IMG/VR virus record: IMGVR_UViG_3300047551_001325 | Span: 9,535 to 73,534 of that record | DNA: 64,000 bases | Source of the DNA: a virus | Direction: 5' to 3' (one strand) | In this document: in pieces, positions 1 through 59,600 of the stretch | How the letters are laid out: each line of letters begins with the position of its first letter | Numbering within the stretch: the first letter of the stretch is position 1 | Program-made: the position numbers and the translations under genes | The notes under the pieces: generated by a model | Seen by the model: the letters and a program-made list of their open reading frames with translations, nothing else | What the model was told of the DNA's origin: nothing | Database searches by the model: none

Positions 1-1
1 A

Positions 2-283
2 GAGTACTTTATGCCAACCTCATCATTTGCTGGTTTTTGCATGATCATGCCGGCTGATTTAGTTAGCAAATGGCGTTTTGATGAAAGAATGAAGTGGTGG
101 TACGGTGATGACGATGTAAAAAGTTGGGTTAGTAGAGTTGCAAACAAAAAAATTGGTATAACGGGTAAATGTCACGCAATCGGCAATATGTCTCATACAA
201 TAAATGGTGATCCACCGCCAAATTTTCATGCTGCGGTAATTAACGACGAAAAACTGTACAGAGAAAAATGGGGTAACAGATAA
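2..283 (+). CDS. Glycosyltransferase (GT2-like), C-terminal part, 5'-truncated by the window
   Basis: Frame open from window start; FAGFCM...RFDERMKWWYGDDD resembles the GT2 C-terminal motif; next to a methyltransferase. Confidence 0.6.
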   Translation, partial: EYFMPTSSFAGFCMIMPADLVSKWRFDERMKWWYGDDDVKSWVSRVANKKIGITGKCHAIGNMSHTINGDPPPNFHAAVINDEKLYREKWGNR

Positions 284-792
284 TGCATCTTGAAGTGTTT
301 AATTGGACAAATGAAGCATTTACTAATTGGCGTAAAAACACTCTATTTGATAAATACAGTGTTTTAGAAATCGGCAGTTTAGACATTAACGGATCAATAC
401 GCTCTATTTTCTCAGATTCTTCATATTATCTTGGGATTGACATGCAAGAAGGCCCGGGAGTAGATCTAGTTGCAAACGCTTCTTCATTTATTGTAGAAGA
501 ACCAGTTGACATTGTTGTATGTTGCGAAGTGTTTGAACACACTGGTGAATGGCCTCAAATAATTGAAGTTACTTATAAAAATCTTAAAAAGAATGGAATT
601 TTTATAGGAACCGCTGCTGGTGAAGGTAGAAAACCACACTCAGCTATTGATGAAAACCCAATACGTGATTGGGAGTATTACTCAAATGTAAAAGCCGAAG
701 ATTTGCGTGGTTGTTTAGAGAATTCGCAGTTTAAAAATATTGTTATTAACAACCTTAATAGCGATATACGTTGGACTGCTATAAAAATATAA
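283..792 (+). CDS. Class I SAM-dependent methyltransferase
   Basis: VLEIGS motif I, YLGID, DIVVCCEVFEH, LKKNG. Confidence 0.85.
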   Translation: MHLEVFNWTNEAFTNWRKNTLFDKYSVLEIGSLDINGSIRSIFSDSSYYLGIDMQEGPGVDLVANASSFIVEEPVDIVVCCEVFEHTGEWPQIIEVTYKNLKKNGIFIGTAAGEGRKPHSAIDENPIRDWEYYSNVKAEDLRGCLENSQFKNIVINNLNSDIRWTAIKI

Positions 793-809
793 AAACAACA
801 AATGTTTGA

Positions 810-883
810 GCCGGATGATGCGTCCGGTTGACGCAAGGTGTCTTATAAACACCCGTAGACGGGTTCAACTCCCGTATCCGGCA
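810..883 (+). tRNA. tRNA-Ile(UAU) with non-canonical D-arm/core; CCA not encoded
   Basis: Acceptor GCCGGAT/ATCCGGC; D-stem TGCGTC/GACGCA; anticodon stem GGTGT/ACACC with loop CTTATAA (TAT at 844-846); T arm ACGGG-TTCAACT-CCCGT; discriminator A. Confidence 0.85.
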
Positions 884-884
884 C

Positions 885-893
885 TGCTACAAT
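885..893 (+). promoter_or_regulatory. Extended -10 promoter (TGcTACAAT), probably leaderless
   Basis: TGnTAnnnT ending 6 nt before the ATG at 900; no SD. Confidence 0.55.
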
Positions 894-899
894 TGTTAG

Positions 900-1037
900 A
901 TGGACAAAAGCCCTGCACAACAATGTGATACGTCTACGCAGTGTGTTTACTGCGGAGGTGAGCTCGTACCCGAGCACGCGCACTATAAGTGTAAAGAGTG
1001 TGGTAGACGTGACGCATGTTGTGAAGGAGTGTATTGA
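900..1037 (+). CDS. Small Zn-ribbon protein (45 aa), not in ORF track
   Basis: MDKSPAQQCDTSTQCVYCGGELVPEHAHYKCKECGRRDACCEGVY; two CxxC pairs; stop overlaps the next start. Confidence 0.7.
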   Translation: MDKSPAQQCDTSTQCVYCGGELVPEHAHYKCKECGRRDACCEGVY

Positions 1038-2266
1038 TTAAAAAACTATTTGGAAGAACAATAAGTGTTTTAAGGTGGTCTTTAATAGTTTTAGCAATAT
1101 TTCCCATAAATACAGCAAAAGCAGAGGCTGAAACCTACACGGTTACTGGGGCAAACGATCTGTGGTTTACCTACACAGAACCCTCAGACTTTAAGGTTCG
1201 CACTTACGCTCAGCAATATGGAATTGACTCCATGCTGTGGTTTTATAACAGCGACGGCGTACTTCTTGCCCAAAACGACGATTACTTTGGGCTTGACTCA
1301 TGGCTTGAAGTCCCTGTTCAACCGGGGTCGTATAGGCTTCGCACAGGTGTTTGTTGCGGAAATCCTGACGCTTGGTATGGGACGTCATATACACTTGAAT
1401 TAAACAGTACCCCAACCAACACGCCGGAGACTACAACGACATGGCCGGAAACCACAACATCCACGACTACAACGACGACAACTTCTACTACTGTCCCCGA
1501 AACGACTGTGCCTGTCACGGAACCCCCGACAACCTCGACAACCTCGACAACTACATCGACTACCTCCACAACTACCTCCACGGTGGTGGAGACGACAACT
1601 ACGACAACCACTGTGGAGACGACTGTTACATCTGCGCCCCAAACAACATCAACGATTGGGACTACTGTTGCCCCCACTGTGGCACCTTCTATCCCAGTGA
1701 CAAGCACGACAAATGCCCCGACTGTGGCTATCCCTCCTCAGGTCTCGTCTACCTCCACCACCACAACGGTCGTCTCAACATCTACGAGCACCTCCATACC
1801 GGAGTCAACCAGTTCGTCTACCAGCACGACCATACCGACGACTGTACCTGTGGACAATGGCCCACAGATTTCTGAAGAAGAAATTGTAAATTTAACTGAC
1901 GAAGAATTAGATAATCTAGTAGAATCTATAGAAGTAAGTGAACTAACCGAGGAATCAATTGCTGCTGTCTTCAGCGAAGAAGTACTTAGCGAATTAACTG
2001 ATGACCAGGTAGTAGAACTTATTGACGCAATCGTCCCAGAAGAACTGTCTGAAGAACAAGCCCTGGCACTGTCTGAAGCGTTAACTAACGCTCCAGATAA
2101 CGTAAAAGAAGAGTTTGAAGCTGAAGTAGACGTGTTTGGTGGTCAATTTGACACGTATGTACCAACAGGGTCTGCTGTGTCTGTAGGAACACGAAGAGTG
2201 GTAGTTGCTGCGGCTGCAGCAAGTTTTGCGATGCCCGCCCCTACGAGTTCAAGGAAAGTTAGATGA
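1034..2266 (+). CDS. Secreted protein: signal peptide, PPC-like beta domain, Thr-rich stalk, acidic repeats, hydrophobic/basic C-terminus
   Basis: Signal ending TAKA-EA; DSMLWFYNSDGVLLAQNDD motif; long T/S/P/V tract; C-terminal RRVVVAAAAASFAMP...RKVR. Confidence 0.75.
   Translation: MIKKLFGRTISVLRWSLIVLAIFPINTAKAEAETYTVTGANDLWFTYTEPSDFKVRTYAQQYGIDSMLWFYNSDGVLLAQNDDYFGLDSWLEVPVQPGSYRLRTGVCCGNPDAWYGTSYTLELNSTPTNTPETTTTWPETTTSTTTTTTTSTTVPETTVPVTEPPTTSTTSTTTSTTSTTTSTVVETTTTTTTVETTVTSAPQTTSTIGTTVAPTVAPSIPVTSTTNAPTVAIPPQVSSTSTTTTVVSTSTSTSIPESTSSSTSTTIPTTVPVDNGPQISEEEIVNLTDEELDNLVESIEVSELTEESIAAVFSEEVLSELTDDQVVELIDAIVPEELSEEQALALSEALTNAPDNVKEEFEAEVDVFGGQFDTYVPTGSAVSVGTRRVVVAAAAASFAMPAPTSSRKVR
1420..1850 (+). 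repeat. Low-complexity ACN-rich tract encoding a mucin-like Thr/Ser/Pro stalk
   Basis: Runs of acaacg/acgact/acctcc; TTTTT, TTVP and TTST units. Confidence 0.85.
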
Positions 2267-2442
2267 TTAAGAAATTATTTAAAGAAACCTCAGCCCTATC
2301 GTGGACACTTGGAGGAACAGCTTTAGTACTAATAACACTTAGCGGTCCAACAAAAGCAGTAGGTTTGTGGATATCTGCTGTATCATTAGTAATCCACTTT
2401 CTTGGTGTGCTTTTTACTAAGGAAACGGAGTCTGAAGAATGA
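2263..2442 (+). CDS. Small 2-TM membrane protein (59 aa), not in ORF track
   Basis: MIKKLFKETSALSWTLGGTALVLITLSGPTKAVGLWISAVSLVIHFLGVLFTKETESEE; ATGA overlaps at both ends. Confidence 0.75.
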   Translation: MIKKLFKETSALSWTLGGTALVLITLSGPTKAVGLWISAVSLVIHFLGVLFTKETESEE

Positions 2443-2558
2443 AAAAAGCTGTATTATTGTTAATACCACTACTGGCATTATCAGCCTGTTCGGATAGATA
2501 TAGGAACCCTGCAGATGACCCAAGAAACCAGACAACGACAAGTGTACCAACCCCGTAA
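2439..2558 (+). CDS. Micro-lipoprotein (39 aa), not in ORF track
   Basis: MKKAVLLLIPLLALSACSDRYRNPADDPRNQTTTSVPTP; LSAC lipobox. Confidence 0.7.
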   Translation: MKKAVLLLIPLLALSACSDRYRNPADDPRNQTTTSVPTP

Positions 2559-2811
2559 ACGCTTATCACCAGAAGATCTAGAAGCTAGAACTAGAGCAGT
2601 GGTCATTATGACACTAGCTGGCGTCCTTCTGTTCAGTGTGTGCGCCCTGTTGTATTCATTGATTTTTGTTTATCAACCATCGGAGCAAAGCCCAAATGAC
2701 GCGGCATTTCTTAAGATACTTGAGCCTCTTATGTTTAGCATTGGTGGCGCCCTTACTGGTTTGGCTGCTGGGCGTGCTATGTCTGCTGGTAAAAAAGAGG
2801 ATAACGAGTAA
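2515..2811 (+). CDS. 2-TM membrane protein
   Basis: Two hydrophobic segments with charged termini. Confidence 0.7.
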   Translation: MTQETRQRQVYQPRKRLSPEDLEARTRAVVIMTLAGVLLFSVCALLYSLIFVYQPSEQSPNDAAFLKILEPLMFSIGGALTGLAAGRAMSAGKKEDNE

Positions 2812-3053
2812 TGGAACCGGTGTATATCCCTATTGTTGTAGCCTTAATAGGGGGACCAGTAATGTGGTTTCTACATCGTTTTGATAAACGTAATACCCAG
2901 CAACATGGTCAAAACATGAAGGTATTAGAGCGTATCGAAACTAAGCAAGATCGTATGGACGGAAAGGTAGATCGCCTAGACGAAAAGGTAGATCGGTTAG
3001 ATGGACGAGTGACAAACCTAGAGTCCGTTAAGACACGCAAGAAAAGTGTATAA
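2811..3053 (+). CDS. Single-TM coiled-coil protein (lysis-associated/holin-like type)
   Basis: N-terminal TM followed by heptads KVDRLDE-KVDRLDG. Confidence 0.65.
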   Translation: MEPVYIPIVVALIGGPVMWFLHRFDKRNTQQHGQNMKVLERIETKQDRMDGKVDRLDEKVDRLDGRVTNLESVKTRKKSV

Positions 3054-3073
3054 TTATTAACACGGAGTCCGAC

Positions 3074-3112
3074 TGGGGTGGGCTATCTGAGGGTGGCCCA
3101 CCCCACATTCTT
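3074..3112 (+). terminator. GC-rich hairpin, probable terminator
   Basis: TGGGGTGGGC...GCCCACCCCA followed by cattctt (weak U-tail). Confidence 0.55.
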
Positions 3113-3128
3113 AGGCTAGAATGGCATT

Positions 3129-3866
3129 ATGACTAATACAGTTAACTATTCTATATCTAAAGGCCTGCCTTGGGAACGTTTGATTATTGTTCGTGATCAA
3201 CGCACACATAGGGTAATTTTCCCAACCTCAGCTAGGGGCAGTATAAAAACTAGCGTTACTGGTCGTAAAGAATTCAATATTACCCTTACAGCAGAAGGTG
3301 GCATACTTTTAGGCTTAACCGAGGAAGACACCACGGACTTACCAACTGGTGAGTTGGAGTTTGACGTATTAGCAACTTACCCAAGAAAAGCCCCATATGC
3401 AGGGGCTAGCGAGGAAGTAACAAGACCAGTAGCACGGGGTACAATTAGTGTAACGGGCTTGGAAAATATTACCCCATTGGAGGACACACAAGCTATGGAA
3501 ATCAGATTCAAACAGCATGTGGACTTCCGAAGAAACTTTACCTGGAGAGACAGTGCAGGAGTAATCTTGACGGTGCAAGATGCCTTTATGCAGGCAAAAG
3601 ACAGTAGTGGTACTACGGTATTAGACCTAAGATGGTATTCATCAACTCCATCTGAAGCAACTGTGATTGGGTTAGCTGGTAACAGACGAGGGTACATTGC
3701 GCCCATAACAGGAGCAACCCTTGAACTTCATATATCTGATAAAAACACAGTACCAGCTGGTAGACATAGTTTTGATATGTTTGTAAAAGATTCTGCCGGA
3801 GATTGGGATTGTTTGGCTTCTGGTGTAGTCGTAGTCGAAGAGGCAATATCGGTACCACCATCATGA
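3129..3866 (+). CDS. Virion structural protein with two tandem beta-sandwich (fibre-attachment-like) domains
   Basis: Two similar halves ending FDVLAT..RGTISV and FDMFVK..SGVVVV; precedes the fibre genes. Confidence 0.55.
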   Translation: MTNTVNYSISKGLPWERLIIVRDQRTHRVIFPTSARGSIKTSVTGRKEFNITLTAEGGILLGLTEEDTTDLPTGELEFDVLATYPRKAPYAGASEEVTRPVARGTISVTGLENITPLEDTQAMEIRFKQHVDFRRNFTWRDSAGVILTVQDAFMQAKDSSGTTVLDLRWYSSTPSEATVIGLAGNRRGYIAPITGATLELHISDKNTVPAGRHSFDMFVKDSAGDWDCLASGVVVVEEAISVPPS

Positions 3867-4285
3867 GCACTGTCGACGTCACAAAACCCGCTAATAAATA
3901 CGTTACAGTTACTAAAACTCAAACCGTATCCAGTGTTGAAAAGGCAGTTGAACAGGTACTTGAGGTACACGATCCTGGGGTTGCTGGTCCTTCAAATGTA
4001 CTTACCATAGGAACTGTAACAACTGGACCCGCAGATGTGACAATAACTGGAGTGTCTCCAAATCAAGTTCTTAATTTTGTAATACCAGTAGGTGCTTCAT
4101 ACATACATAATCAAATAACTTCTTCAACAACTTGGACAATAAACCACAACCTTGGATTTTTCCCGTCTGTTTCTGTTGTAGACAGCGGCGGTAACCATGT
4201 TATAGGTGATGTAACATATGTATCACAAAACGTTGTAACCGTATCATTCAACTCTTCCTTCGGTGGAAAAGCGTACCTATCGTGA
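3863..4285 (+). CDS. Minor structural protein (fibre-associated)
   Basis: WTINHNLGFFPSVSVVD...FGGKAYLS motif; ATG overlaps the upstream stop. Confidence 0.65.
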   Translation: MSTVDVTKPANKYVTVTKTQTVSSVEKAVEQVLEVHDPGVAGPSNVLTIGTVTTGPADVTITGVSPNQVLNFVIPVGASYIHNQITSSTTWTINHNLGFFPSVSVVDSGGNHVIGDVTYVSQNVVTVSFNSSFGGKAYLS

Positions 4286-4291
4286 GGTCTT

Positions 4292-5536
4292 ATGTCTAAG
4301 TTTCTTACAAATATTGATTTAACTGGTAATGAATTACAGAACGTTGTAATCCATAACGCCGGCACTGCACCTACCGCCAGCGCCAAGCTAGGCGGTTTGT
4401 ACTTTGACACCTCAACTGGTGTCAACAAACTTAAGTACTACAACGGTAGCGCCTGGGTTGAATTATCAGTTGGTGCTTCTGGTACATGGCAGCCTTACGA
4501 TGCCGACCTTTCTGCTATCGCAGCCCTTACTGGAACTTCTGGTTTTCTTAAGACAAACGGTTCTGGAACTTGGTCGGTTGACACCAACACATATCTGACA
4601 TCAACAACTGGCGTTACTACGGTAAATGGAAATAGTGGAGCGATTACTAACGTTGCACTAACGACTGGAACCCTTGCTCAGTTTGCATCCGGCACGACAC
4701 CCACCGAATTACGCACACTAATATCTGGGACTACAGGGCTTGGAAACCTTGTATTTGCATTATCGCCCACAATTAGCACCAGTATTATCACCTCCTCTAC
4801 CTCTTTTGACTTAATCAATACGACGGCAACAACTGTTAACTTTGCTGGTGCAGCTACTGCCGTAAACATTGGTGCGGCCAACAGCACCACTACAATTGCT
4901 GGCGACCTAGTGGTGAACGGTACTACCACCACCATTAACAGCACAACTGTAACAGTTGACGATCTAAACATCGTACTTGGTTCTGTCACCACCCCAACTA
5001 ACACCACCGCAAACGGTGGAGGTATTACCGTTGCAGGTGGTGTTGATGGTAACAAGACCTGGAACTGGGTGTCTTCTACCAGCTCCTGGACTTCTTCGGA
5101 GAACATTGATCTAGCTGCAGGTAAGGTTCTTAAGATTGCCGGTACCCAAGTGCTTTCTGCAACTCAGTACACTGGTAACTCTTCAACTGCTACTACCGCT
5201 ACCAACGTAACTGGTGGCGCTGCCGGATCGTTGGTTTACCAAAGCGGTTCTGCTACCACTACTACCTTGGGTATTGGTACTTCTGGCTACGTCTTAACAT
5301 CAAGTGGTTCGGCACCACAATGGTCAAAGAAGAAGCACTCCGAAACACTCGCCTCAAGCGCCACTTCATACTCGATTACTCACGGGTTGGGCACCGCCGA
5401 TCTTGTAGTAGCAGTTTACGCAGTGTCAACTGGTGAGGTAGTTTACGCAGACATAGTTAACACCAGCACCACCACAACTCTGTCATTTGCAACAGCACCA
5501 AGTACCAACCAGTACCGTGTTGTTATACTTGCTTAA
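4292..5536 (+). CDS. Tail fibre-like structural protein
   Basis: G/T/S-rich; GDLVVNGTTTTINSTTVTVDD fibre repeat; C-terminal ITHGLGT domain. Confidence 0.7.
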   Translation: MSKFLTNIDLTGNELQNVVIHNAGTAPTASAKLGGLYFDTSTGVNKLKYYNGSAWVELSVGASGTWQPYDADLSAIAALTGTSGFLKTNGSGTWSVDTNTYLTSTTGVTTVNGNSGAITNVALTTGTLAQFASGTTPTELRTLISGTTGLGNLVFALSPTISTSIITSSTSFDLINTTATTVNFAGAATAVNIGAANSTTTIAGDLVVNGTTTTINSTTVTVDDLNIVLGSVTTPTNTTANGGGITVAGGVDGNKTWNWVSSTSSWTSSENIDLAAGKVLKIAGTQVLSATQYTGNSSTATTATNVTGGAAGSLVYQSGSATTTTLGIGTSGYVLTSSGSAPQWSKKKHSETLASSATSYSITHGLGTADLVVAVYAVSTGEVVYADIVNTSTTTTLSFATAPSTNQYRVVILA

Positions 5537-5558
5537 TAAGTCGTTTTAAAGGAGCCTT

Positions 5559-8500
5559 ATGGCTAACTTTCTAAAGTCCCTCTTTGTTAAGGGGGTTGAA
5601 ATCGATACTGCCGGTGCATCCACCGGTAACGTCCTTTCATACAACGGTACAAAGTTTGCTCCTGCCGCTCCTGGGTCTGGGTCTCTTGCATTAGACGATC
5701 TATCAGATGTTGTTGTTACTTCTCCGGAAGAGTTCCAAGGTCTTTCATATAACGGAGTATCTTGGGTAAACAGCCACATCCCGTTAGTTTCGTATGTGCG
5801 TAATGCTGAAGCCACCACTATTACTACGGGTACGTGTGTTTATCTTTACGGGGCTACCGGGGATCACGCCTCTGTAAAAAGGGCTGACAACACCAGTGAC
5901 ACCACATCATCCAAAACTATTGGTGTTGCTGGTGCAGGCATCACGGCAAGCAACAACGGCCCAATTGTTACCCGTGGATATGTTGATGGTATAGACCTTT
6001 CAACTGGGTATACCGCTGGTGATATCCTATGGCTTGGAACTAACGGGTCTTTTACCAAGACCAAACCAACATCTCCAGCGCACTTAGTTTTTATTGGTGT
6101 AGTAGTTCGGGCAACCAATAACGGTATTATTTACGTTGCTACTCAAAACGGTTATGAACTGGACGAACTACATAATGTCAGTGCTGGGTCTCCCTCAGCG
6201 GGGGATTTCCTTAAATACAACGGATCACTGTGGGTAAACGACGCAATTGATCTTGGTACTGATACCACTGGAAGTTACGTTGCCTCGTTGGTTGCAGGAA
6301 CTGGTATTTCTCTTGCTAACAACTCCGGTGAAGGTGCTACTCCAACCATTACAAATACAGGCGTAACGAGCATCAATACAACTTTGACTGGCGCGGTTAC
6401 TGGTGTTGTGACTACTTCCGACACCGGGACAGTTACTTCCGCAATGATTGCTGATGGGACAATTGTTAATGCGGATGTAAGTACTTCTGCCGCAATTGCC
6501 CATAGCAAACTGGCAAATGCAACCGCTGGTCAAGTTCTTTTAGGAACGACAACTACTGGAGTCGTGACTGCAACAACTCTTTCGGGAGATGTGACCATTA
6601 ACGGTGCTGGAGTAACGGCTATTGGGTCTGGTGTTATAGTTAACGCAGATGTAAACGCTTCTGCCGCTATTGCACTTTCTAAATTGGCAAGTGGTACAGC
6701 CGGTCAAGTTGTGGTGGCTAATGCTTCAGGAGTGCCTACATACACCACTATTTCTGGTGATATCACTGTATCTTCTACTGGCGTTGCAACTATTGCCGCC
6801 AATTCCGTCATACTTGGTACAGACACCACTGGTAACTACATGTCTGACATTTCAGGGACCAGCCCTGTCTCTGTATCCCATACTCCCGCTGAAGGATCAT
6901 CAGCAACTGTTTCATTGGCAACTGCGTATGGCGACACCCAGAACCCGTATGGTTCTAAGACTGCCAACTACTTCCTAGCTTCACCTGATGGGTCTGCATC
7001 TAACCCATCTTTCCGAGCAATGGTCAATGCCGACATCCCGTCAGCATTGACTTCTAAAACATACAACGGGTTGACAGTTACTAGTACCACCGGCACATTT
7101 ACTCTTACTAACACTAAAACTTTATCAGTAACCAACACCCTAACCCTTTCTGGTACAGATTCCACAACAATGACATTCCCTGCTACAAGCAGCACTGTCA
7201 TGACGTTGGCTACCCCCGGAACACTTACTGGCACTTTGACGTTGCGGGCCGGAACTGCCACTGCTGGTACAGCTCCAATGTACCTTCAAAGTGGAACAAA
7301 CCTTACAACAGCAGCGGCTGGAGCTCTTGAGTTTGACGGAACAAACTTATACTTTACTCCATCTACGTCTCGTAAGACTGTTGCATTTACGGATTCAAAC
7401 ATAACAGGCACAGCTGCCAATATTACGGCTTCGTCAAACACGTCTATTACTTCATTGTCCAACCTAGCAACTGTTGGAACTATCACTTCAGGTACATGGT
7501 CAGGGTCATTTGGTGCGGTTTCCGGCGCAAACCTTACATCGCTTAATGCCAGCAATCTTGGGTCAGGTACTGTTCCTTCTGCCCGCATTTCCGGTTCCTA
7601 CAGCGGTATTACCTCAGTTGGTACATTAAGTGGTCTTGCTGTTGCTGGAAATATCTCTTCGCAATCCGTTACTAACGGTGACATCATACAAATAAGCCCA
7701 GTAATGGCTGGTACTACGGGACGTGCGCTTATATTAACCAACGTTGCTCTAACTGCTACTACAAGAACTATTACATTTCCAAATGCGGATGGAACTGTTA
7801 TTACAACAGGAAACCTCACTGGCATCACGGCAGTAGGTACGTTGTCATCTCTTACTGTCGATGGTATTTCATCTACCTCAATCACCCTTGGTGACTGGAG
7901 TGGAAATGGTGCGTATTCTTCAATAGGTGGGGTAAGCGGTTATCTGCTGTTTGGGTCAACTGGAGACAGCAATATTTACCTGCGTTCAAACAATAACAAC
8001 AATGTTTACATTGGAGCGAATGATCAAAACACACTTCATGTGACAAGCAGTCAAACACTCATTGCAACAGGTTCAGCAACAACACCAACATTGGCTATCC
8101 AAGGTGATACCAATACAGGTCTCTATTCAGGTCTTGCAGACTGGCTTAACGTGACGTGTGGTGGAACTGGAATGGCTACCTTTACGACAAGTGGGCCGTT
8201 CTTCGGAACAAACACGACAACTTCAACGGTAACATGGCGTGTTGACACTTTTAACCGCTTAGGAACACCCACTTCAACACGTGAACTAAAGGAGAACATT
8301 GAGGATTTGGCAGGCGAGCAAGCACTATCGATTGTTCGAGCATTACGGCCAAGGACATTTACTTGGAAACCCCAACCGGACGATGGTGAGTTCCTTTCAT
8401 CTTTGAAACAAGGGGCTGTTCAAGCTGGTTTTATCGTAGAAGAAATTGAAGAAACTACACTGCCGTTATCAATGCTTGAATACAAACCCAACATTTCAGA

Positions 8501-17376: not shown

Positions 17377-17704
17377 AAACCCTACTACTCCCAAGTTAGC
17401 CATTATCACGTGGTTAGACGCATTTGATGGACCAACTGGGTGGGTAGATCCCTTGGATTATAAACCCCGCCCAGTTCGTCCCATCTCAGTTGGATGGGTA
17501 GTAGACGACTTTTTGAAAGACCATATAACGCTGGTCGGTACCTACTTAGTAGATCTCAATGATTCACAAAATCCGGTGTACTATAGCAATCCCTCTCATA
17601 TCCCTTTGGGAATGGTACAATCAATAACATACATTGACGTTCCAAGTTCAATAGAACAACTCATTATTAATGATTTAAACACCAGGGGATTTAATGCCGA
17701 TTGA
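17354..17704 (+). CDS. Small beta-barrel-type phage protein
   Basis: ITWLDA..GW..SVGWV..IPLGMV pattern. Confidence 0.6.
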   Translation: MHKPKKSKNPTTPKLAIITWLDAFDGPTGWVDPLDYKPRPVRPISVGWVVDDFLKDHITLVGTYLVDLNDSQNPVYYSNPSHIPLGMVQSITYIDVPSSIEQLIINDLNTRGFNAD

Positions 17705-19385
17705 TTTCTGGTCACCAAGTTACAGAGCTTCTTCTAGTGACTTAACTGTTGCTATATCACCCCTTGGTTTAGTTGAGTTAGCTGACGAAGAGTTTGAGGT
17801 ACACGGACCTAGGCTGAACAGATACAGCGCTTGTTGGGCTTGGTACCTTGGTCACCACTGGTCTTACCGTCGTGAACAGGGTGAGCAAAACATCACTCTA
17901 AATTACACAAGAACGTTTGCTGACTACATTACAAACTTTTGTTTTGGTAAAGGTCTTCAATGGAAAGTGCCAGAACAAAATGCTGCAATCATTCCCCATC
18001 TATTACATAAAGTCTGGGAAATAGACAACTCAAAGCATAATGTGCTTTGGGAAATGGGGCAGTTAGCCGGCGTTACTGGTGACTGCTTCGTAAAGGTTGC
18101 TTACGAAGAGCCATACATTGACCCACTAGGAATCATGAATGAGGGACGAATCAGAGTAATTCCTCTAAACCCAGCGCACTGTTTTCCCGAGTATCACCCA
18201 CACGACCGTGATCGACTACTTCGGTTTAAACTTAAATACCGATTCTGGGGTACTTCACCTGAAGGAACACGCCAGGTATACACCTTTACAGAAATACTTA
18301 CTGATGACAGCATTGAACAGTACATCAATGACGAACTAGTAGATCAGTACCCTAATCCAATTGGTCGTATTCCCGTAGTGCATATACCAAATATGACAAT
18401 CTCTTCGTCACCTTGGGGTCAGTCTGATATCTGGGATATCATCCCCTTAAACCGTGAGTTAAACGAAAAGATGACCGAAATATCGGACATCATTAACTAT
18501 CACGCAGCTCCGGTAACAATCATTATTGGAGCAAAAGCCAGTCAACTTGAACGCGGTCCAAAGAAAGTTTGGGCAGGTTTGCCAAAGGATGCATCTGTAA
18601 CCAACCTAGAATCTCGTGGTGACATGGCTGGAGCGCTTCAGTACATTCAATTCTTAAAGCGTGTAATGCATGAAATAACAGGTGTACCTGAGACTGCATT
18701 AGGTCAATTCCAGCCGGTGTCAAACACGTCTGGTGTGGCGCTGTCTATTCAGTACCAACCTCTAATGAACCGCTATAACATGAAACGGATTCACTTTACA
18801 AAAGGTCTAGAGAAAGTTAATGAAATAATTATAAGAACTGCTGCTATTTTCCAACCAGAGTTGCTTATATACGACCCCTCTAAAGCTGAGGCCCCAGAGG
18901 GCGATCAACTACCACAACTAGATCCATCTGATCCCCTTACCTATAAGACACAGGTTCACTGGCCAGAACCACTGCCAGTTGATGTACTCATTAAACTTAA
19001 TGAAGCTCAGGCCAAAATGGCAATGGGTCTTGAATCCAAAGAAGGCGCTTTGCGTACTCTTGGTGAAGAATTCCCACGTGAAAAACTTGCTGAGATTTTT
19101 GAAGAACTGCGAGATGACGCTGTTGATCAGGGAGCGCTTGACATGCTTCGCGCACAGATTAACCAAGCAGTTATGCTTGCCACAGGCTTGTTACCTGGCC
19201 CCGAAGGTACCAGCACGGTACCCGCTGGAGGTGCTAATGTAACAAGTGCAGGTTCACCACAATCTGGAGGTCCATTACCTGGTCCTCAAGCAGTTGGTGG
19301 TCCTGTAGAAGGAATGGTAAACAATATAGTTGCAAAGGCATACGGAGCTAGGCTCGCCCAGCGCCGTGTTCCTGATGAAGAATAA
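17694..19385 (+). CDS. Portal protein (SPP1 gp6-like)
   Basis: GDCFVKV, NPIGRIPVVHIPN, GQSDI, NTSGVAL; size and position. Confidence 0.9.
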   Translation: MPIDFWSPSYRASSSDLTVAISPLGLVELADEEFEVHGPRLNRYSACWAWYLGHHWSYRREQGEQNITLNYTRTFADYITNFCFGKGLQWKVPEQNAAIIPHLLHKVWEIDNSKHNVLWEMGQLAGVTGDCFVKVAYEEPYIDPLGIMNEGRIRVIPLNPAHCFPEYHPHDRDRLLRFKLKYRFWGTSPEGTRQVYTFTEILTDDSIEQYINDELVDQYPNPIGRIPVVHIPNMTISSSPWGQSDIWDIIPLNRELNEKMTEISDIINYHAAPVTIIIGAKASQLERGPKKVWAGLPKDASVTNLESRGDMAGALQYIQFLKRVMHEITGVPETALGQFQPVSNTSGVALSIQYQPLMNRYNMKRIHFTKGLEKVNEIIIRTAAIFQPELLIYDPSKAEAPEGDQLPQLDPSDPLTYKTQVHWPEPLPVDVLIKLNEAQAKMAMGLESKEGALRTLGEEFPREKLAEIFEELRDDAVDQGALDMLRAQINQAVMLATGLLPGPEGTSTVPAGGANVTSAGSPQSGGPLPGPQAVGGPVEGMVNNIVAKAYGARLAQRRVPDEE

Positions 19386-20244: not shown

Positions 20245-21351
20245 ATGGCATTACCCGCACCCGCAGGTGGAGCAATTACAGGTACAGCTACCGGTTCAGT
20301 GACCGGTTATACTGACGGTAGTTCCGCTCTATCCCCAGCAATCCAGCAAATTTGGTCAAAGGAAATCCTTTTCCAGGCCATGCCCGTACTTCGCTTTGAA
20401 CAGTTCGCTGTTAAGAAGACCGAACTCGGTGTCATGCCCGGTTTGACCATCAACTTCATGCGTTACAACAACCTTTCAGTTGATGAGTCAGCAGGAGCTA
20501 CCCTTAGCGAAGGCACCCGTATGGAGCCCGTAGCTTTGTCCGCAAGCCAAATTCAGATCACCGTAAGCGAGCATGGTAAGGCTGTGGCTGTTACCGAGTT
20601 GCTGCTCAACGCATCTTTCGATGACGTCATGGCATCAGCTTCTCGTCTACTTGGTCGTCACATGGCCCAGAGCATGGACATCCAAGCTCGTAACACCCTC
20701 TACAAGAACGGTGTACCGTTCGGCGGTGGATCAGCAGTTCCTCCAAGCGTTGTGTTTGGTCGTACGGCTGCTTCTACCCGTGGAGCAATAAGCCCCTACG
20801 ACGCCGGTACCCTTGGCACCGCTTCTTCACCCGGTTACCTCAGCCCAGCATCCATCAAGGATGCCGTTGAAGTTCTCGCCGGACAGAACATCCCACGCCT
20901 TGGTGACACCTACGTATGTTTCGTACACCCAAGTCAGAGCCGTTCACTTCGTGACTGGCCCGAATTCATCGAAGTCACCAAGTACGCCGCTCCCGGCAAC
21001 TTCATGCTTGGTGAAATCGGTCGTTTGTACGACGTAGTTTTCATTGAAACCACCCAAGTCAAGAAGGGCCTAGATGCTACTGCATCAACTGCTCCTCTGT
21101 ACGGAATGGGTTCAACCCTTGACACCAGTGCTACTTCTGGTTTCCAAGAAAACGCCGACGCTTACAACGCCATCATGATCGGTGACAACGCCTTCGGTCA
21201 CGCAATCAGCCTACCGGTTGAGCTACGTGACGGTGGTGTCATCGACTTTGGTCGTGAGCACGGTCTTGCTTGGTACGCCATCTGGGGCTTCGGTGTCATC
21301 ACCCACGAAAGCCGTGTGATTCTAAACACACTCGGTGGCGCAATTTCCTGA
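20245..21351 (+). CDS. Major capsid protein (N4-gp56 family)
   Basis: LSEG..., CFVHP, GEIGRLYDVVFIET, DFGREHGLAWY; strong codon bias. Confidence 0.92.
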   Translation: MALPAPAGGAITGTATGSVTGYTDGSSALSPAIQQIWSKEILFQAMPVLRFEQFAVKKTELGVMPGLTINFMRYNNLSVDESAGATLSEGTRMEPVALSASQIQITVSEHGKAVAVTELLLNASFDDVMASASRLLGRHMAQSMDIQARNTLYKNGVPFGGGSAVPPSVVFGRTAASTRGAISPYDAGTLGTASSPGYLSPASIKDAVEVLAGQNIPRLGDTYVCFVHPSQSRSLRDWPEFIEVTKYAAPGNFMLGEIGRLYDVVFIETTQVKKGLDATASTAPLYGMGSTLDTSATSGFQENADAYNAIMIGDNAFGHAISLPVELRDGGVIDFGREHGLAWYAIWGFGVITHESRVILNTLGGAIS

Positions 21352-56660: not shown

Positions 56661-59600
56661 ATGGCAAAGAGAAAACCTAAAAAAATTGAAGGTTTAATTT
56701 CTAAATCTTTAGAAGAAGCAAGAGCAGATGATGCAAGAGTAAACGCTAAAAAAGCTGATTCTCCTGCCGATACTTCTAGTACTAAAGACACCTCATCAAG
56801 GCCAACGACGCCCCTACTTACTGGTACTCCAAAAAAACCAGTACCACCTCCACCTTCTGGTGGCCCAAAACAGGTCACAAGTAGCGAGTTAACAGATGAT
56901 GAAAAAGAAATAATTGAACAAACATTGGCGTTAAGCAAAGAAAAAGCTCCAAACGAAGTTCAAAGTCCTTTTGATAGAAGACTAGCAGAGTTACCACCAC
57001 ATGTAGTCCGAGAAATACTGAAAGAAACACCTGGTAGAAACAGGGAAAGAGATCGCAAGAGAAAAGCCGACGAAAGAGGCACTCCTGAAGACAAACGGCG
57101 CACAGGTCACACCAAAGGTGAACAACGCAAAGGTGACATAAAGCGTTCAAAAGTAAAAAAGTCCAGAGAAGAACGGTCCAAGGAAGTTTCAGCTATTGCA
57201 AAGGCAAAAGTTGACAAGTTTGCAACTGAATCTGACGTTGCCGACACGAAATATAAAAAATCCCAAGCTTATGACAGGGAACTTTTAGCACCAGGCGGCT
57301 CAGAATCACCTGATCTGCCTTGGGCAATTCAAGGTGTACCAGAGTTTCTTAGAACCTACACTACTGGCGGACTCCCCGGTATAACATATGATCCAAAGAG
57401 CCCATACAGTGACAAGCACGGATATGTTAGCTCAAGAGATGGTAAAACACCAACAGAAGAAGATCTAATAGCACACCTGATATTCCTAGAGGGTGTACCT
57501 GGGATAGATGACCTAGATACTACTGAGTTAATGAGTGACTCTGGTGCCGTTAGTAAAGCTGAACTTTTACAAGACACCGGAGATGTAAGTATCGGTGGTG
57601 AGCGGGAATATGCACCAGGCTCAATTAATGTAAAAGACCTAACTGTAACAGACGCTGCAGAAAAAGCTGCTTCTAAAGCCAGTGCCAATGAATCTCAATT
57701 AGTAAAAAATACTAGACAAAGCATGGCTGAACAAGCATGGGCAGAATCGCAAGACCCTGTATATGGTGGAGGCCCAACAACATCAGAACAGCTTTTAGAA
57801 AAAGATATTGAGGTTGACCCTGAACTAGCTTCACAAAGATTAACTTTTGACGAATCTGGTAACCCAACTCTTGCTGGTAGAGGTCCTAGACCACAGGCAG
57901 AAACGCGGGAAGAAAGAGCCGCTGCTAGATCAGGATATATGAGACGACTTCTTACTAGAGCAGGATTGTATAGAGATAAATTTAGAGAAATGGAAAGAAG
58001 TGACAATACCTTTGACACTTTTTCCGCCAGAGAACCACAAAGAGATTCATACCCTAAAGGCAAAAGCGGTGATGAGGCATACCAACAAGACCTAGTAATT
58101 TATAACATTTCTTTTGGAAAGAAGTCTCAATTACAAGAGTCTCTAGAAAGAGAACAACGTGACGTACGGTTAAAGGCCGCCAATGAACACTTAGACCAAA
58201 TAGCTAACACTGGGGACGACAGTACAAGAAAACAAACAAAACAATTTATAGAAAATAATAAAATTACAGGAGAAGTTTTACTTTCCCCAGCTATCTATCA
58301 CCAGCGTTTTGGTGAAAGTGGCCTTCGTTTGGAAGGTGAAGAAGAAGGACTAACACACTCCGAATTTAAAGACTTACTGGGGTTTGACTCAGATACTAGT
58401 GAAACTAGTACGGCCTACCCACAGTCTGGTAGACAAACAACTTTAACTGAAGACCCAGCAACTGGTCAAAGAACTTATGATATTACAAGACCTGGTTTAC
58501 TAAAAAGTGTTGTTGAAGACCAACAACGCAAGTTTCCAGGAACCGAAGTTCGCTCACGTCCAAATGACCAACCCGGAGGTCCTGCGTATCTACACCGTGG
58601 TCGTGCTCCAGGAAGCATAGATTATTTATATGGTCATATATTTGATGCCTTAGAGCGTCTACCAAAACAACCAGCTGGTACAGTGCTCCCTTCCATGAAA
58701 AAGGAGGGTGACCCCACAGCTAGAAGGTCAGATAGAGTTGTTGGTAGTGGTCTAACTCGTCAACAATTGCAATATGTTAACGAGTTGCGCAAAAAAGGAA
58801 AGATTGGTATGCAGTCCTCTGAACTCTTCTCTGAAGGAGTACAGGACCCAACACTAAATCCAGAACTATTTAGAATAGACCCTGTTACAAAAGTAGAAAC
58901 CGCAAAAGATGCAGGTGGTAGATGGACACGTGCTGCTGCGCAAAAGGTAAGACAACGTGCCGAAGGTGCAGGTACTTTGGCTCAAAGACGCCTGAAGTGG
59001 GAAACACGCGAAAGTGACGAAACTGAAGAAGTAAAAGTACCAATTTATTCAGATCCTAGCCCAGACCAAAACCCATCAATAATCGGATACCGCACCGATA
59101 CTAGGAAAAAAACATTCCAATCGCCAGTGATGGAGTCTTACCAAGAAGTAGATGAAAAAGGAAACTTAAAATTTGAAAGAAAACAAAAAGTTGATGAAGC
59201 GGGCGCTCCAGTATATGACGAAAACAACAAACCAGTAATGGAAAGAGTACCCGTTATGGGTACACGCCAAGCAACAGAAGTTGTTGGTGTTGATTCGTCT
59301 GGCAGACGACCCGGTGTGTTCTTGCGTAAACCAAGAACCGTACAAGTAGGTGAAGACAAAAAAACTGGAGAACCAATTCTAGAAGATGTTCAAGGCGTAG
59401 AAAGCGAAATTACTGGCTACGGTGCAATAGCCGCAAGAGAGATACAACGACGTCTTGACAAAGGATTGATGTCCCCAGAGTTTAGACGTTCAGTTGGACT
59501 TGTCTCTGATAAAAACGCCCAAAGTCTTGCACGCACTGCAGCAAGAATTGAAGAGCAAGATGCTACGGATGAAGAGTACTTAAGAGCACTTGGTAAATCA

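Follow-up and report, generated by a model that had tools for sequence, protein, structure and literature searches.

A conserved phage tRNA-Ile(UAU) gene with a probable tRNASec-type core, a candidate reader of AUA

The window analysed here, that is, the whole stretch of phage DNA under study (64 kb; bases 9535–73534 of a 73.5-kb IMG/VR record with a completeness estimate of 81%), carries on its plus strand a 74-nt tRNA gene with the anticodon UAU (positions 810–883), in which residues that are near-universal in elongator tRNAs give way to those typical of bacterial tRNASec. We regard its product as a genuine, selected tRNA, most likely one that is charged with isoleucine and reads AUA, and that is held together by a Sec-type core in which G8 and G48 form base triples; we put the probability of this reading at roughly 0.65. 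The isoleucine charging, the reading of AUA, the state of U34 and the three-dimensional triples are what we infer from the sequence of the gene and of its relatives, and the evidence for each is set out below.

The acceptor stem pairs GCCGGAU (810–816) with AUCCGGC (876–882) over 7 bp and leads into G8 (817), at a position where U is near-universal, and A9. The D arm (819–835) comprises a 6-bp stem, UGCGUC (819–824; U10 to C15) paired with GACGCA (830–835; G20b to A25), which includes the pairs U14:A21 and C15:G20b and closes the 5-nt loop CGGUU (825–829; C16, G18, G19, U20 and U20a). After A26 comes the anticodon arm, in which GGUGU and ACACC enclose the loop CUUAUAA (842–848; C32, U33, U34, A35, U36, A37 and A38), with the anticodon itself at 844–846. 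The variable loop, CGUAG (854–858; C44, G45, U46, A47 and G48), places G48 at 858, and the T arm (859–875) consists of a 5-bp stem, ACGGG with CCCGU, capped by the canonical loop UUCAACU. The discriminator is A73 (883) and no CCA is encoded. All four stems are fully paired, and the 7/5 cloverleaf retains G18, G19 and the T-loop elbow. The stems, the UAU anticodon and the identities of residues 8, 14, 15, 21, 37, 38, 48 and 73 are just as given in a first-pass annotation made from the letters alone, and its 6-bp D stem is borne out by folding: the minimum free energy structure is a cloverleaf with this stem (−32.5 kcal/mol; z = −3.45; equalled by one of 200 shuffles), it beats the version with a 4-bp D stem by 5.0 kcal/mol under the nearest-neighbour model, and the pair probabilities of 14:21 and 15:20b are both 0.99.

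ARAGORN reports a tRNA-Ile(tat) at 810–884, the sole tRNA that it finds in the window. Run against either the region or the whole virus record, the Rfam tRNA model RF00005 matches the gene over its full length (model positions 1–71) with 40.9 bits (E = 1.5e-7) against a gathering cut-off of 29 bits, so that a covariance-model score, proposed by the first-pass annotation as a check, lies above the cut-off for a tRNA. The same family searched at the gathering threshold over the whole window (1–64000) gave no match and missed the gene altogether: speed-filtered Rfam scans can lose tRNAs with a core of this kind. The core that RF00005 represents, U8:A14 with R15:Y48, is replaced in this tRNA by G8, U14, C15 and G48. 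Few features of elongator tRNAs are as highly conserved as U8:A14 and the Levitt pair at 15:48.

Conservation of the gene was followed along two routes. A homologue search with the 410-aa protein encoded downstream gave 56 related loci, 11 of which have a syntenic tRNA(tat), and a scan of IMG/VR with the D-arm string added further copies. By contig names, the resulting family spans 28 other IMG/VR contigs in addition to the source contig, with 40 loci and 16 distinct sequences. Across the alignment of these 16, 99.2% of the stem cells are paired, and nine pairs show compensatory two-sided changes (five in the acceptor stem, two in the anticodon stem and two in the T stem), a number matched by none of 500 shuffles; of the seven acceptor pairs, five thus change on both sides within the family, and all seven do so in the wider set of lineages described below. 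Mismatched copies are few (a C12·A23 opposition in L137 and an A·C in the T stem of L202). The D arm, by contrast with the other stems, is frozen, and G8, U14, C15, G18, G19, G20b, A21 and G48 never vary. The tRNA is about 92% identical per column, whereas its flanks cease to align within a few bases of either end; moreover, about 11 of the contigs have homologues of none of the three proteins encoded beside it, and the gene therefore appears to persist in different phage backgrounds. All 17 tRNAs with the family D arm, among the loci fetched by the D-arm scans, carry UAU. In a collection of genome contigs, ARAGORN found no tRNA carrying the D-arm pattern at any of the 120 loci among the matches listed; the pattern is a 16-mer with two degenerate positions, for which we estimate about a thousand chance matches in that collection, so that chance should account for the majority of the hits.

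These data bear directly on whether the gene is merely decaying. The loss of U8 and A14, and the failure of the whole-window Rfam scan, are what a pseudo-tRNA would show, but such a sequence should not maintain its pairing through nine compensated changes in 16 distinct versions, and the departures from the canonical core are themselves invariant; we consider decay to be extremely improbable. That this is a genuine phage tRNA gene, functional and kept by selection, is in our judgement well supported by the comparative data, in line with the first-pass view that it is functional rather than decayed. The accompanying suggestion, that homologues be collected to see whether the unusual core is conserved, has a clear outcome, as G8, U14, C15 and G48 are identical in 16 of 16 sequences. 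The covariation proposed at 8/14/21 and 15/48 has a mixed one: within the family the residues are invariant, such that neither 14:21 nor 15:20b yields a signal, whereas 14:21 does vary between lineages.

The closest parallel to this core lies in bacterial tRNASec. In the Aquifex aeolicus structure, as it is described by Itoh et al. (Itoh 2013, PMC3711452), the D stem has 6 bp, formed by residues 10–15 with 20a–25, and the triples 14:21:8 and C15:G20a:G48 replace U8:A14 and R15:Y48; according to the same account, bacterial tRNASec conserves C15, G20a and G48 without exception. With numbering that we assigned after that study, the selC product of Escherichia coli K-12 has the linker G8 U9, the D stem CGUCUC/GAGGCG with U14:A21 and C15:G20a, the loop CGGU and, ahead of the T stem, a lone G48. 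With this molecule the phage tRNA has in common G8, U14:A21, C15 paired with G20a or G20b, G48, and the top of the arm, UC-CGGU-GA, in which it has one extra loop base; with bacterial tRNASec in general it shares the 6-bp D stem, the combination of C15:G20a/b and G48, a Watson–Crick pair at 14:21, and a short D loop containing G18 and G19. It differs in having a 7/5 branch, a 5-nt variable loop, a 5-nt D loop and UAU, where bacterial tRNASec has an 8/5 (13-bp) branch, a long extra arm, a 4-nt D loop and UCA. The Rfam model for tRNASec, RF01852, scores the gene at 36.6 bits, and the margin of RF00005 over RF01852 is only about 4 bits for this tRNA (40.9 versus 36.6), whereas for the other two tRNAs of this phage, both canonical, it is 33 and 39 bits. 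A tRNASec proper was considered and rejected on the basis of the 7/5 branch, the 5-nt variable loop, the UAU anticodon and an RF01852 score below that model's 47-bit cut-off.

The other way to accommodate the same residues is an AUA-reading tRNA-Ile of canonical layout with substituted partners, namely, a 4-bp D stem, a G8–U14 pair and a reversed Levitt pair, C15:G48, as the first-pass annotation had supposed. A trans pair C15:G48 would be isosteric with G15:C48, and C15 and G48 do occur together in two lineages (L131 and L082) in which a U at 20x leaves C15 without a partner there, so that these two are better fitted by the direct pair. Within the family, however, U14:A21 and C15:G20b are Watson–Crick in 16 of 16 members, a further lineage (L377) has C:G at 14:21 and keeps all six pairs, the 6-bp stem is favoured by the folding margin of 5 kcal/mol, and the residues concerned are precisely those that serve both as stem pairs and in triples in the solved tRNASec described by Itoh et al. 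(2013, PMC3711452). The canonical layout is thus a minority possibility, to which we would give about one chance in five, and the core is best read as being of the bacterial tRNASec type rather than as a simply reversed 15:48 pair. The first-pass annotation was, therefore, right about the residues C15 and G48, whereas the pair that it made of them is the less likely arrangement. Since C15, G20b and G48 are all invariant, their sequence is compatible both with a Sec-type triple and with a direct C15:G48 pair.

Comparison with other phage tRNAs places the family in a broader setting. A scan of IMG/VR with the anticodon loop and one T-arm variant fixed and the core positions left free (scan 20) gave at least 118 loci, and the notion that tRNA-Ile(UAU) is rare does not, therefore, hold for phages. 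Among the matches listed there are 83 distinct tRNA(UAU) sequences, 14 with G8 and 69 without, and C15 together with G48 is found in 12 of the 14 but in none of the 69; the 12 sequences with G8, C15 and G48 represent no more than three or four lineages. A second scan (scan 40), in which G48 was imposed as a requirement, added further sequences, and 22 were aligned (alignment A3), the rows having been chosen for possession of G8. Overall, no fewer than four phage tRNA(UAU) lineages combine G8, C15 and G48; they share G8, C15:G20b, G48 and a 5-nt YGGUN loop, whereas the remainder of the D stem and the other stems differ with compensation. We infer homology between the lineages from their scores with a covariance model of our own (R1), which are 52–68 bits compared with less than 45 for canonical tRNAs. 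The D stem takes four forms: UGCGUC/GACGCA in the 16 sequences of the family itself; UUCCCC/GGGGAA in L377, where all six pairs are Watson–Crick and 14:21 is C:G; and GUGAGC/GAACAC (three sequences) and GCGAGC/GACCGC (two sequences), in both of which 13:22 and 14:21 are non-Watson–Crick. Across the 22-sequence alignment, 19 of the 23 pairs change on both sides, including five of the six D-stem pairs; 15:20b is C:G in all 22, 14:21 is U:A in 16, C:G in one and G·A in five, and the discriminator A73 is invariant (22/22).

The T stem settles the branch layout. In the same alignment 49:65 (A:U, C:G or G:C) and 50:64 (C:G, U:A or A:U) covary, which fixes a 7/5 arrangement; an 8/4 layout with a G8–N65 pair was rejected, because 49:65 covaries while G8 stays fixed. 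This matters for the comparison with the allo-tRNAs. In the account of Mukai et al., these have an 8/4 or 9/3 branch, a long variable arm and a D stem that resembles that of tRNASec and is closed by a tetraloop, and UAU is one of the anticodons that predominate among them (Mukai 2017, PMC5389517). The phage tRNA and the allo-tRNAs, compared here by description only, have in common the long, Sec-like D stem and UAU, and differ in the branch, the variable arm and the D tetraloop (PMC5389517). Assignment of the gene to the allo-tRNAs was also rejected, given that the covariation at 49:65 with a fixed G8 excludes 8/4 and that the variable loop has 5 nt. The preference for UAU common to the phage tRNAs with this core and to the allo-tRNAs is a notable parallel.

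A survey of 358 distinct phage tRNA sequences, of which 278 could be parsed and 80 could not, shows how unusual such cores are: of the 278, 245 have U and 18 have G at position 8, and 247 have A at position 14. Among 455 distinct viral tRNAs, a sample enriched in UAU by design, 24 have a D stem of at least 5 bp closing a 5-nt NGGNN loop, these being 20 UAU tRNAs, two Ile(GAU), one Gln and one Asp; within this viral sample, the non-canonical D arm looks enriched in isoleucine tRNAs. Phage tRNA-Ile(UAU) with a canonical core have the same anticodon loop, CUUAUAA, the same A73 and T arm, and presumably the same part in AUA codon compensation, and are distinguished by U8, A14, mostly G15:C48 or G15:G48, and a 4-bp D stem, where the family has G8, U14:A21, C15:G20b, G48 and 6 bp.

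Several further phage tRNAs deserve mention. A 73-nt tRNA(UAU) with the D arm UGCUUC CGGUU GAGGCA, very like that of the family, occurs in three loci (L378:6304–6376 and 6475–6547, L384:3683–3755 and L402:3593–3665); it can be read either with a 6-bp D stem and no 8–9 linker, or with U8, G9, a 4-bp stem and a D loop of only 5 nt, and the two copies in L378 are identical and lie 171 nt apart. Two phages with an odd-core tRNA(UAU) also encode a tRNA-Ile(GAU) with G8, a long D stem and a 5-nt GG loop. In another lineage the UAU tRNA combines A8 with an A14:U21 pair, and a similar tRNA-Ile(GAU) shows the same features (the loci behind these remarks are L124 and L432 for tRNA-Ile(gat), and L140 and L092 for tRNA(tat)).

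Support for the decoding of AUA comes from codon usage. Over 78 ORFs called crudely on the 73.5-kb record (22,199 codons), ATA accounts for 423 of 1237 isoleucine codons (34%), which bears out the first-pass impression, gained by eye, that ATA is frequent, and AGA for 394 of 1128 arginine codons (35%). From the proportions of A, T and C at fourfold-degenerate third positions, ATA would be expected at 39%; at 34%, it is essentially not avoided. The ratio of observed to expected ATA has a median of 0.83 in loci that carry the tRNA (n = 8), against 0.35 in loci that do not (n = 39) and 0.45 in the subset of the latter matched for GC content (n = 22), such that the carriers' use of ATA, relative to base composition, is about twice that of their relatives. 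One-sided Mann–Whitney tests give p ~1e-5 against all non-carriers and ~7e-5 against the GC-matched ones, for loci that are akin and so not phylogenetically independent. For this comparison, duplicates and loci with fewer than 40 isoleucine codons were dropped, leaving about 100 isoleucine codons per locus in crudely called ORFs, and a non-carrier is a locus at which the tRNA is absent, on a genome that may have one elsewhere. The proposal that the tRNA decodes AUA thus gains indirect support, from codon usage in the phage and its relatives, in that ATA usage tracks the presence of the gene.

Codon choice also differs strongly between genes of the one phage. The major head protein (phrog_1357, E = 2e-65; window 20245–21351) uses ATA for one of 22 isoleucines and AGA for none of 15 arginines, whereas in a 1953-aa protein of unknown family (window 56661–62522) ATA encodes 38 of 80 isoleucines and AGA 80 of 158 arginines. 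Avoidance of both codons by the head protein is expected if the host reads both slowly, and suggests that ATA and AGA may both still be slow in the host; it shows, too, that tRNA-Ile(UAU) does not make ATA an optimal codon. The second phage tRNA relevant here, Arg(UCU), reads AGA, and lies upstream of the window on the opposite strand together with a CAU tRNA (G000:C1:2632–2705 and 3501–3574); both are canonical, at 74 and 72 bits. The predicted specificities of the Ile(UAU) and Arg(UCU) tRNAs match ATA and AGA exactly, which is classical codon compensation. The CAU tRNA may be an elongator tRNA-Met or a lysidine-dependent tRNA-Ile2; by inspection it is without initiator features, and in BLAST searches against E. 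coli and phages it matched only generic tRNA-Lys and tRNA-Met bodies. Should it be tRNA-Ile2, the phage would have two different AUA decoders.

Taken together, these observations suggest the following scheme. The tRNA would be transcribed with its neighbours and cut out by host RNases, after which the host CCA-adding enzyme would complete its 3' end and the host IleRS would charge it through A35, U36, A37, A38 and A73. Of the features found in AUA decoders that are independent of TilS, the gene has the encoded UAU with A37, A38 and A73, A38 being replaced by U or C in some relatives. With U34 in place of C34, the lysidine step catalysed by TilS should not be needed, an independence that follows only from the encoded base. 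The charged tRNA would then read AUA and, together with tRNA-Arg(UCU), would provide capacity for two codons that are heavily used in the phage and probably poorly read by a freshwater host. Within the tRNA, U14:A21 and C15:G20b would lengthen the D stem to 6 bp while the 5-nt loop keeps G18 and G19 available for the elbow, and G8 and G48 would probably dock on 14:21 and 15:20b, respectively, as triples, filling the places of U8:A14 and R15:Y48. The result would be an alternative to the canonical core that is no less ordered.

Precedent for such a decoder exists in Mycoplasma mobile, the tRNA-Ile2(UAU) of which likewise has an encoded UAU and, as reported by Taniguchi et al., reads AUA without lysidine (Taniguchi 2013, PMC3575796). 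That system is described as having co-evolved with an IleRS containing Arg865 and with a ribosome that rejects AUG (PMC3575796), whereas the present tRNA is phage-borne and has a non-canonical core. In E. coli, by the same account, IleRS is a poor enzyme for UAU tRNA unless Arg replaces W905, and an unmodified UAU tRNA also binds AUG on the ribosome (Taniguchi 2013, PMC3575796); function of the phage tRNA would, therefore, depend on the host IleRS, the host ribosome or modification of U34. The frozen, unusual body of the tRNA might bear on this problem of UAU charging and AUG binding.

That recognition of UAU by IleRS is not universal, according to the study of M. mobile (PMC3575796), raises the question of whether the RNA is charged with a different amino acid or is a tRNA-like decoy, primer or regulatory element that does not decode at all. 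Its RF00005 score of 40.9 bits is low for a tRNA, and the allo-tRNAs with a Sec-like D arm, which often carry UAU, are described as not being isoleucine tRNAs (Mukai 2017, PMC5389517). Against this, the features needed for decoding are kept across the lineages, namely, a 7-nt anticodon loop with U33, an invariant UAU with A37, A73, G18 and G19, and the T loop; the long variable arm that would serve SerRS is absent; and presence of the gene tracks ATA usage. A non-decoding RNA or one charged with another amino acid is accordingly a poor candidate, and we prefer the AUA-reading tRNA-Ile by a wide measure.

A different kind of explanation would keep the AUA decoder and seek the reason for its body in counter-defence: the tRNA would survive when a host tRNase, or an enzyme that reads U8/A14 or the core, strikes the host tRNA-Ile. 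Phage tRNAs resistant to defence tRNases are reportedly documented. Resistant phage tRNAs are also described in connection with P2-OLD (PMC12445682), and a bacterial Schlafen nuclease is described as leaving cleavage signatures on tRNA-Ile(CAU) among others (PMC13056530); moreover, non-canonical bodies recur in phage tRNA(UAU). The documented escapes lie, however, in the anticodon loop or stem, whereas the loop here is the standard CUUAUAA, as it is in most canonical-core phage tRNA(UAU), and the idea of anticodon-nuclease evasion advanced in the first-pass annotation finds no support. No defence or anti-defence gene was found beside the tRNA in Pfam and PHROGs searches of the neighbouring genes, and codon compensation already accounts for the presence of the gene. 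Counter-defence is, therefore, improbable, although somewhat less so than a non-decoding RNA.

The phage is tailed, with terminase, portal, major head and tape-measure genes, and DNA almost identical to it is present in metagenomes of fresh water and drinking water from 15 studies. Its portal (window 17694–19385) is 54% identical over its full length to its counterparts in Streptomyces phages such as BRock, by this protein the nearest cultured relative, and others of the genus Borockvirus, which is the sole clue to its affinities; these phages are about 113 kb with roughly 35 tRNAs, and those of BRock include no Ile(UAU). A GC content of 43.6% and a freshwater habitat fit poorly with a Streptomyces host. 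No WhiB-like motif was found in six frames, a megablast of window 1–6000 against GenBank phages gave no match, and blastn with the tRNA returned only T-arm fragments of unrelated tRNAs. Searching five freshwater or other genomes and 151 Actinomycetota genomes (one of the latter, G006, is unpublished and supports no claim made here) with the model R1 gave at best 49.5 bits, for a canonical tRNA-Thr(UGU).

The tRNA is co-oriented with, and lies between, a weakly methyltransferase-like ORF and a 45-aa ORF with four cysteines; Pfam and PHROGs searches of the genes around 810–883 gave only weak, generic methyltransferase and GT2 matches and nothing related to tRNA. No sigma-70 promoter or terminator of its own flanks the gene beyond chance expectation. 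An extended −10-like motif, TGnTAYAAT (885–893), begins two bases past the 3' end of the tRNA and is exact in nine of 12 aligned loci, and 18 nt ahead of it, within the T loop, is TTCAAC, a weak −35-like match (both within window 864–902). The 45-aa ORF, homologues of which follow the tRNA in five loci (L005, L011, L013, L016 and L071), has its ATG at 900, about 7 nt beyond the motif and without a Shine–Dalgarno sequence, and its mRNA may, therefore, be leaderless. A DNA contig from a freshwater sequencing run (X3) matches through position 886 and then continues into unrelated sequence (window 884–886). This break, together with the divergence of relatives at both ends of the tRNA, would place the gene at a mosaic junction between modules of the phage genome. 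Two metatranscriptome runs and one run that is probably DNA contain only small parts of a 6-kb stretch, with no contig over 810–883; as tRNAs are rarely assembled, this has no bearing on expression.

Why the unusual body persists invites a bolder, and distinctly speculative, proposal, which we think is unlikely to be correct in full but marginally less doubtful than counter-defence. The Sec-type core (G8, C15, G48, a long D stem and a 5-nt GG loop) could be a portable body plan that phages reuse preferentially on isoleucine tRNAs, and that persists because it changes how host factors treat an AUA decoder with U34; it would then be a structural route to TilS-free decoding of AUA rather than a neutral frozen accident. 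The proposal draws on the occurrence of the core in at least four UAU lineages, on its presence in two tRNA-Ile(GAU) genes of those phages, and on the parallel with the UAU-rich allo-tRNAs. The steps affected could be charging by an IleRS averse to UAU, modification at U34 or at position 8, discrimination between AUA and AUG, or cleavage by a defence tRNase.

In the literature searched, which took in few subscription journals, we found no description of a tRNA of this type, only the work on tRNASec, allo-tRNAs, M. mobile and nuclease evasion. A 6-bp D stem with a two-triple core has been described as a special feature of tRNASec and of the related allo-tRNAs, and the same residues are seen here in a class I tRNA of ordinary size with a 7/5 branch, conserved in many freshwater phages that are uncultivated. 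Because filtered Rfam scans can miss such genes, the AUA-decoding capacity of phages may be under-annotated. If the proposed geometry holds, a Sec-type core would be compatible with normal elongation outside the selenocysteine system, which would have a bearing both on tRNA engineering and on the origin of tRNASec.
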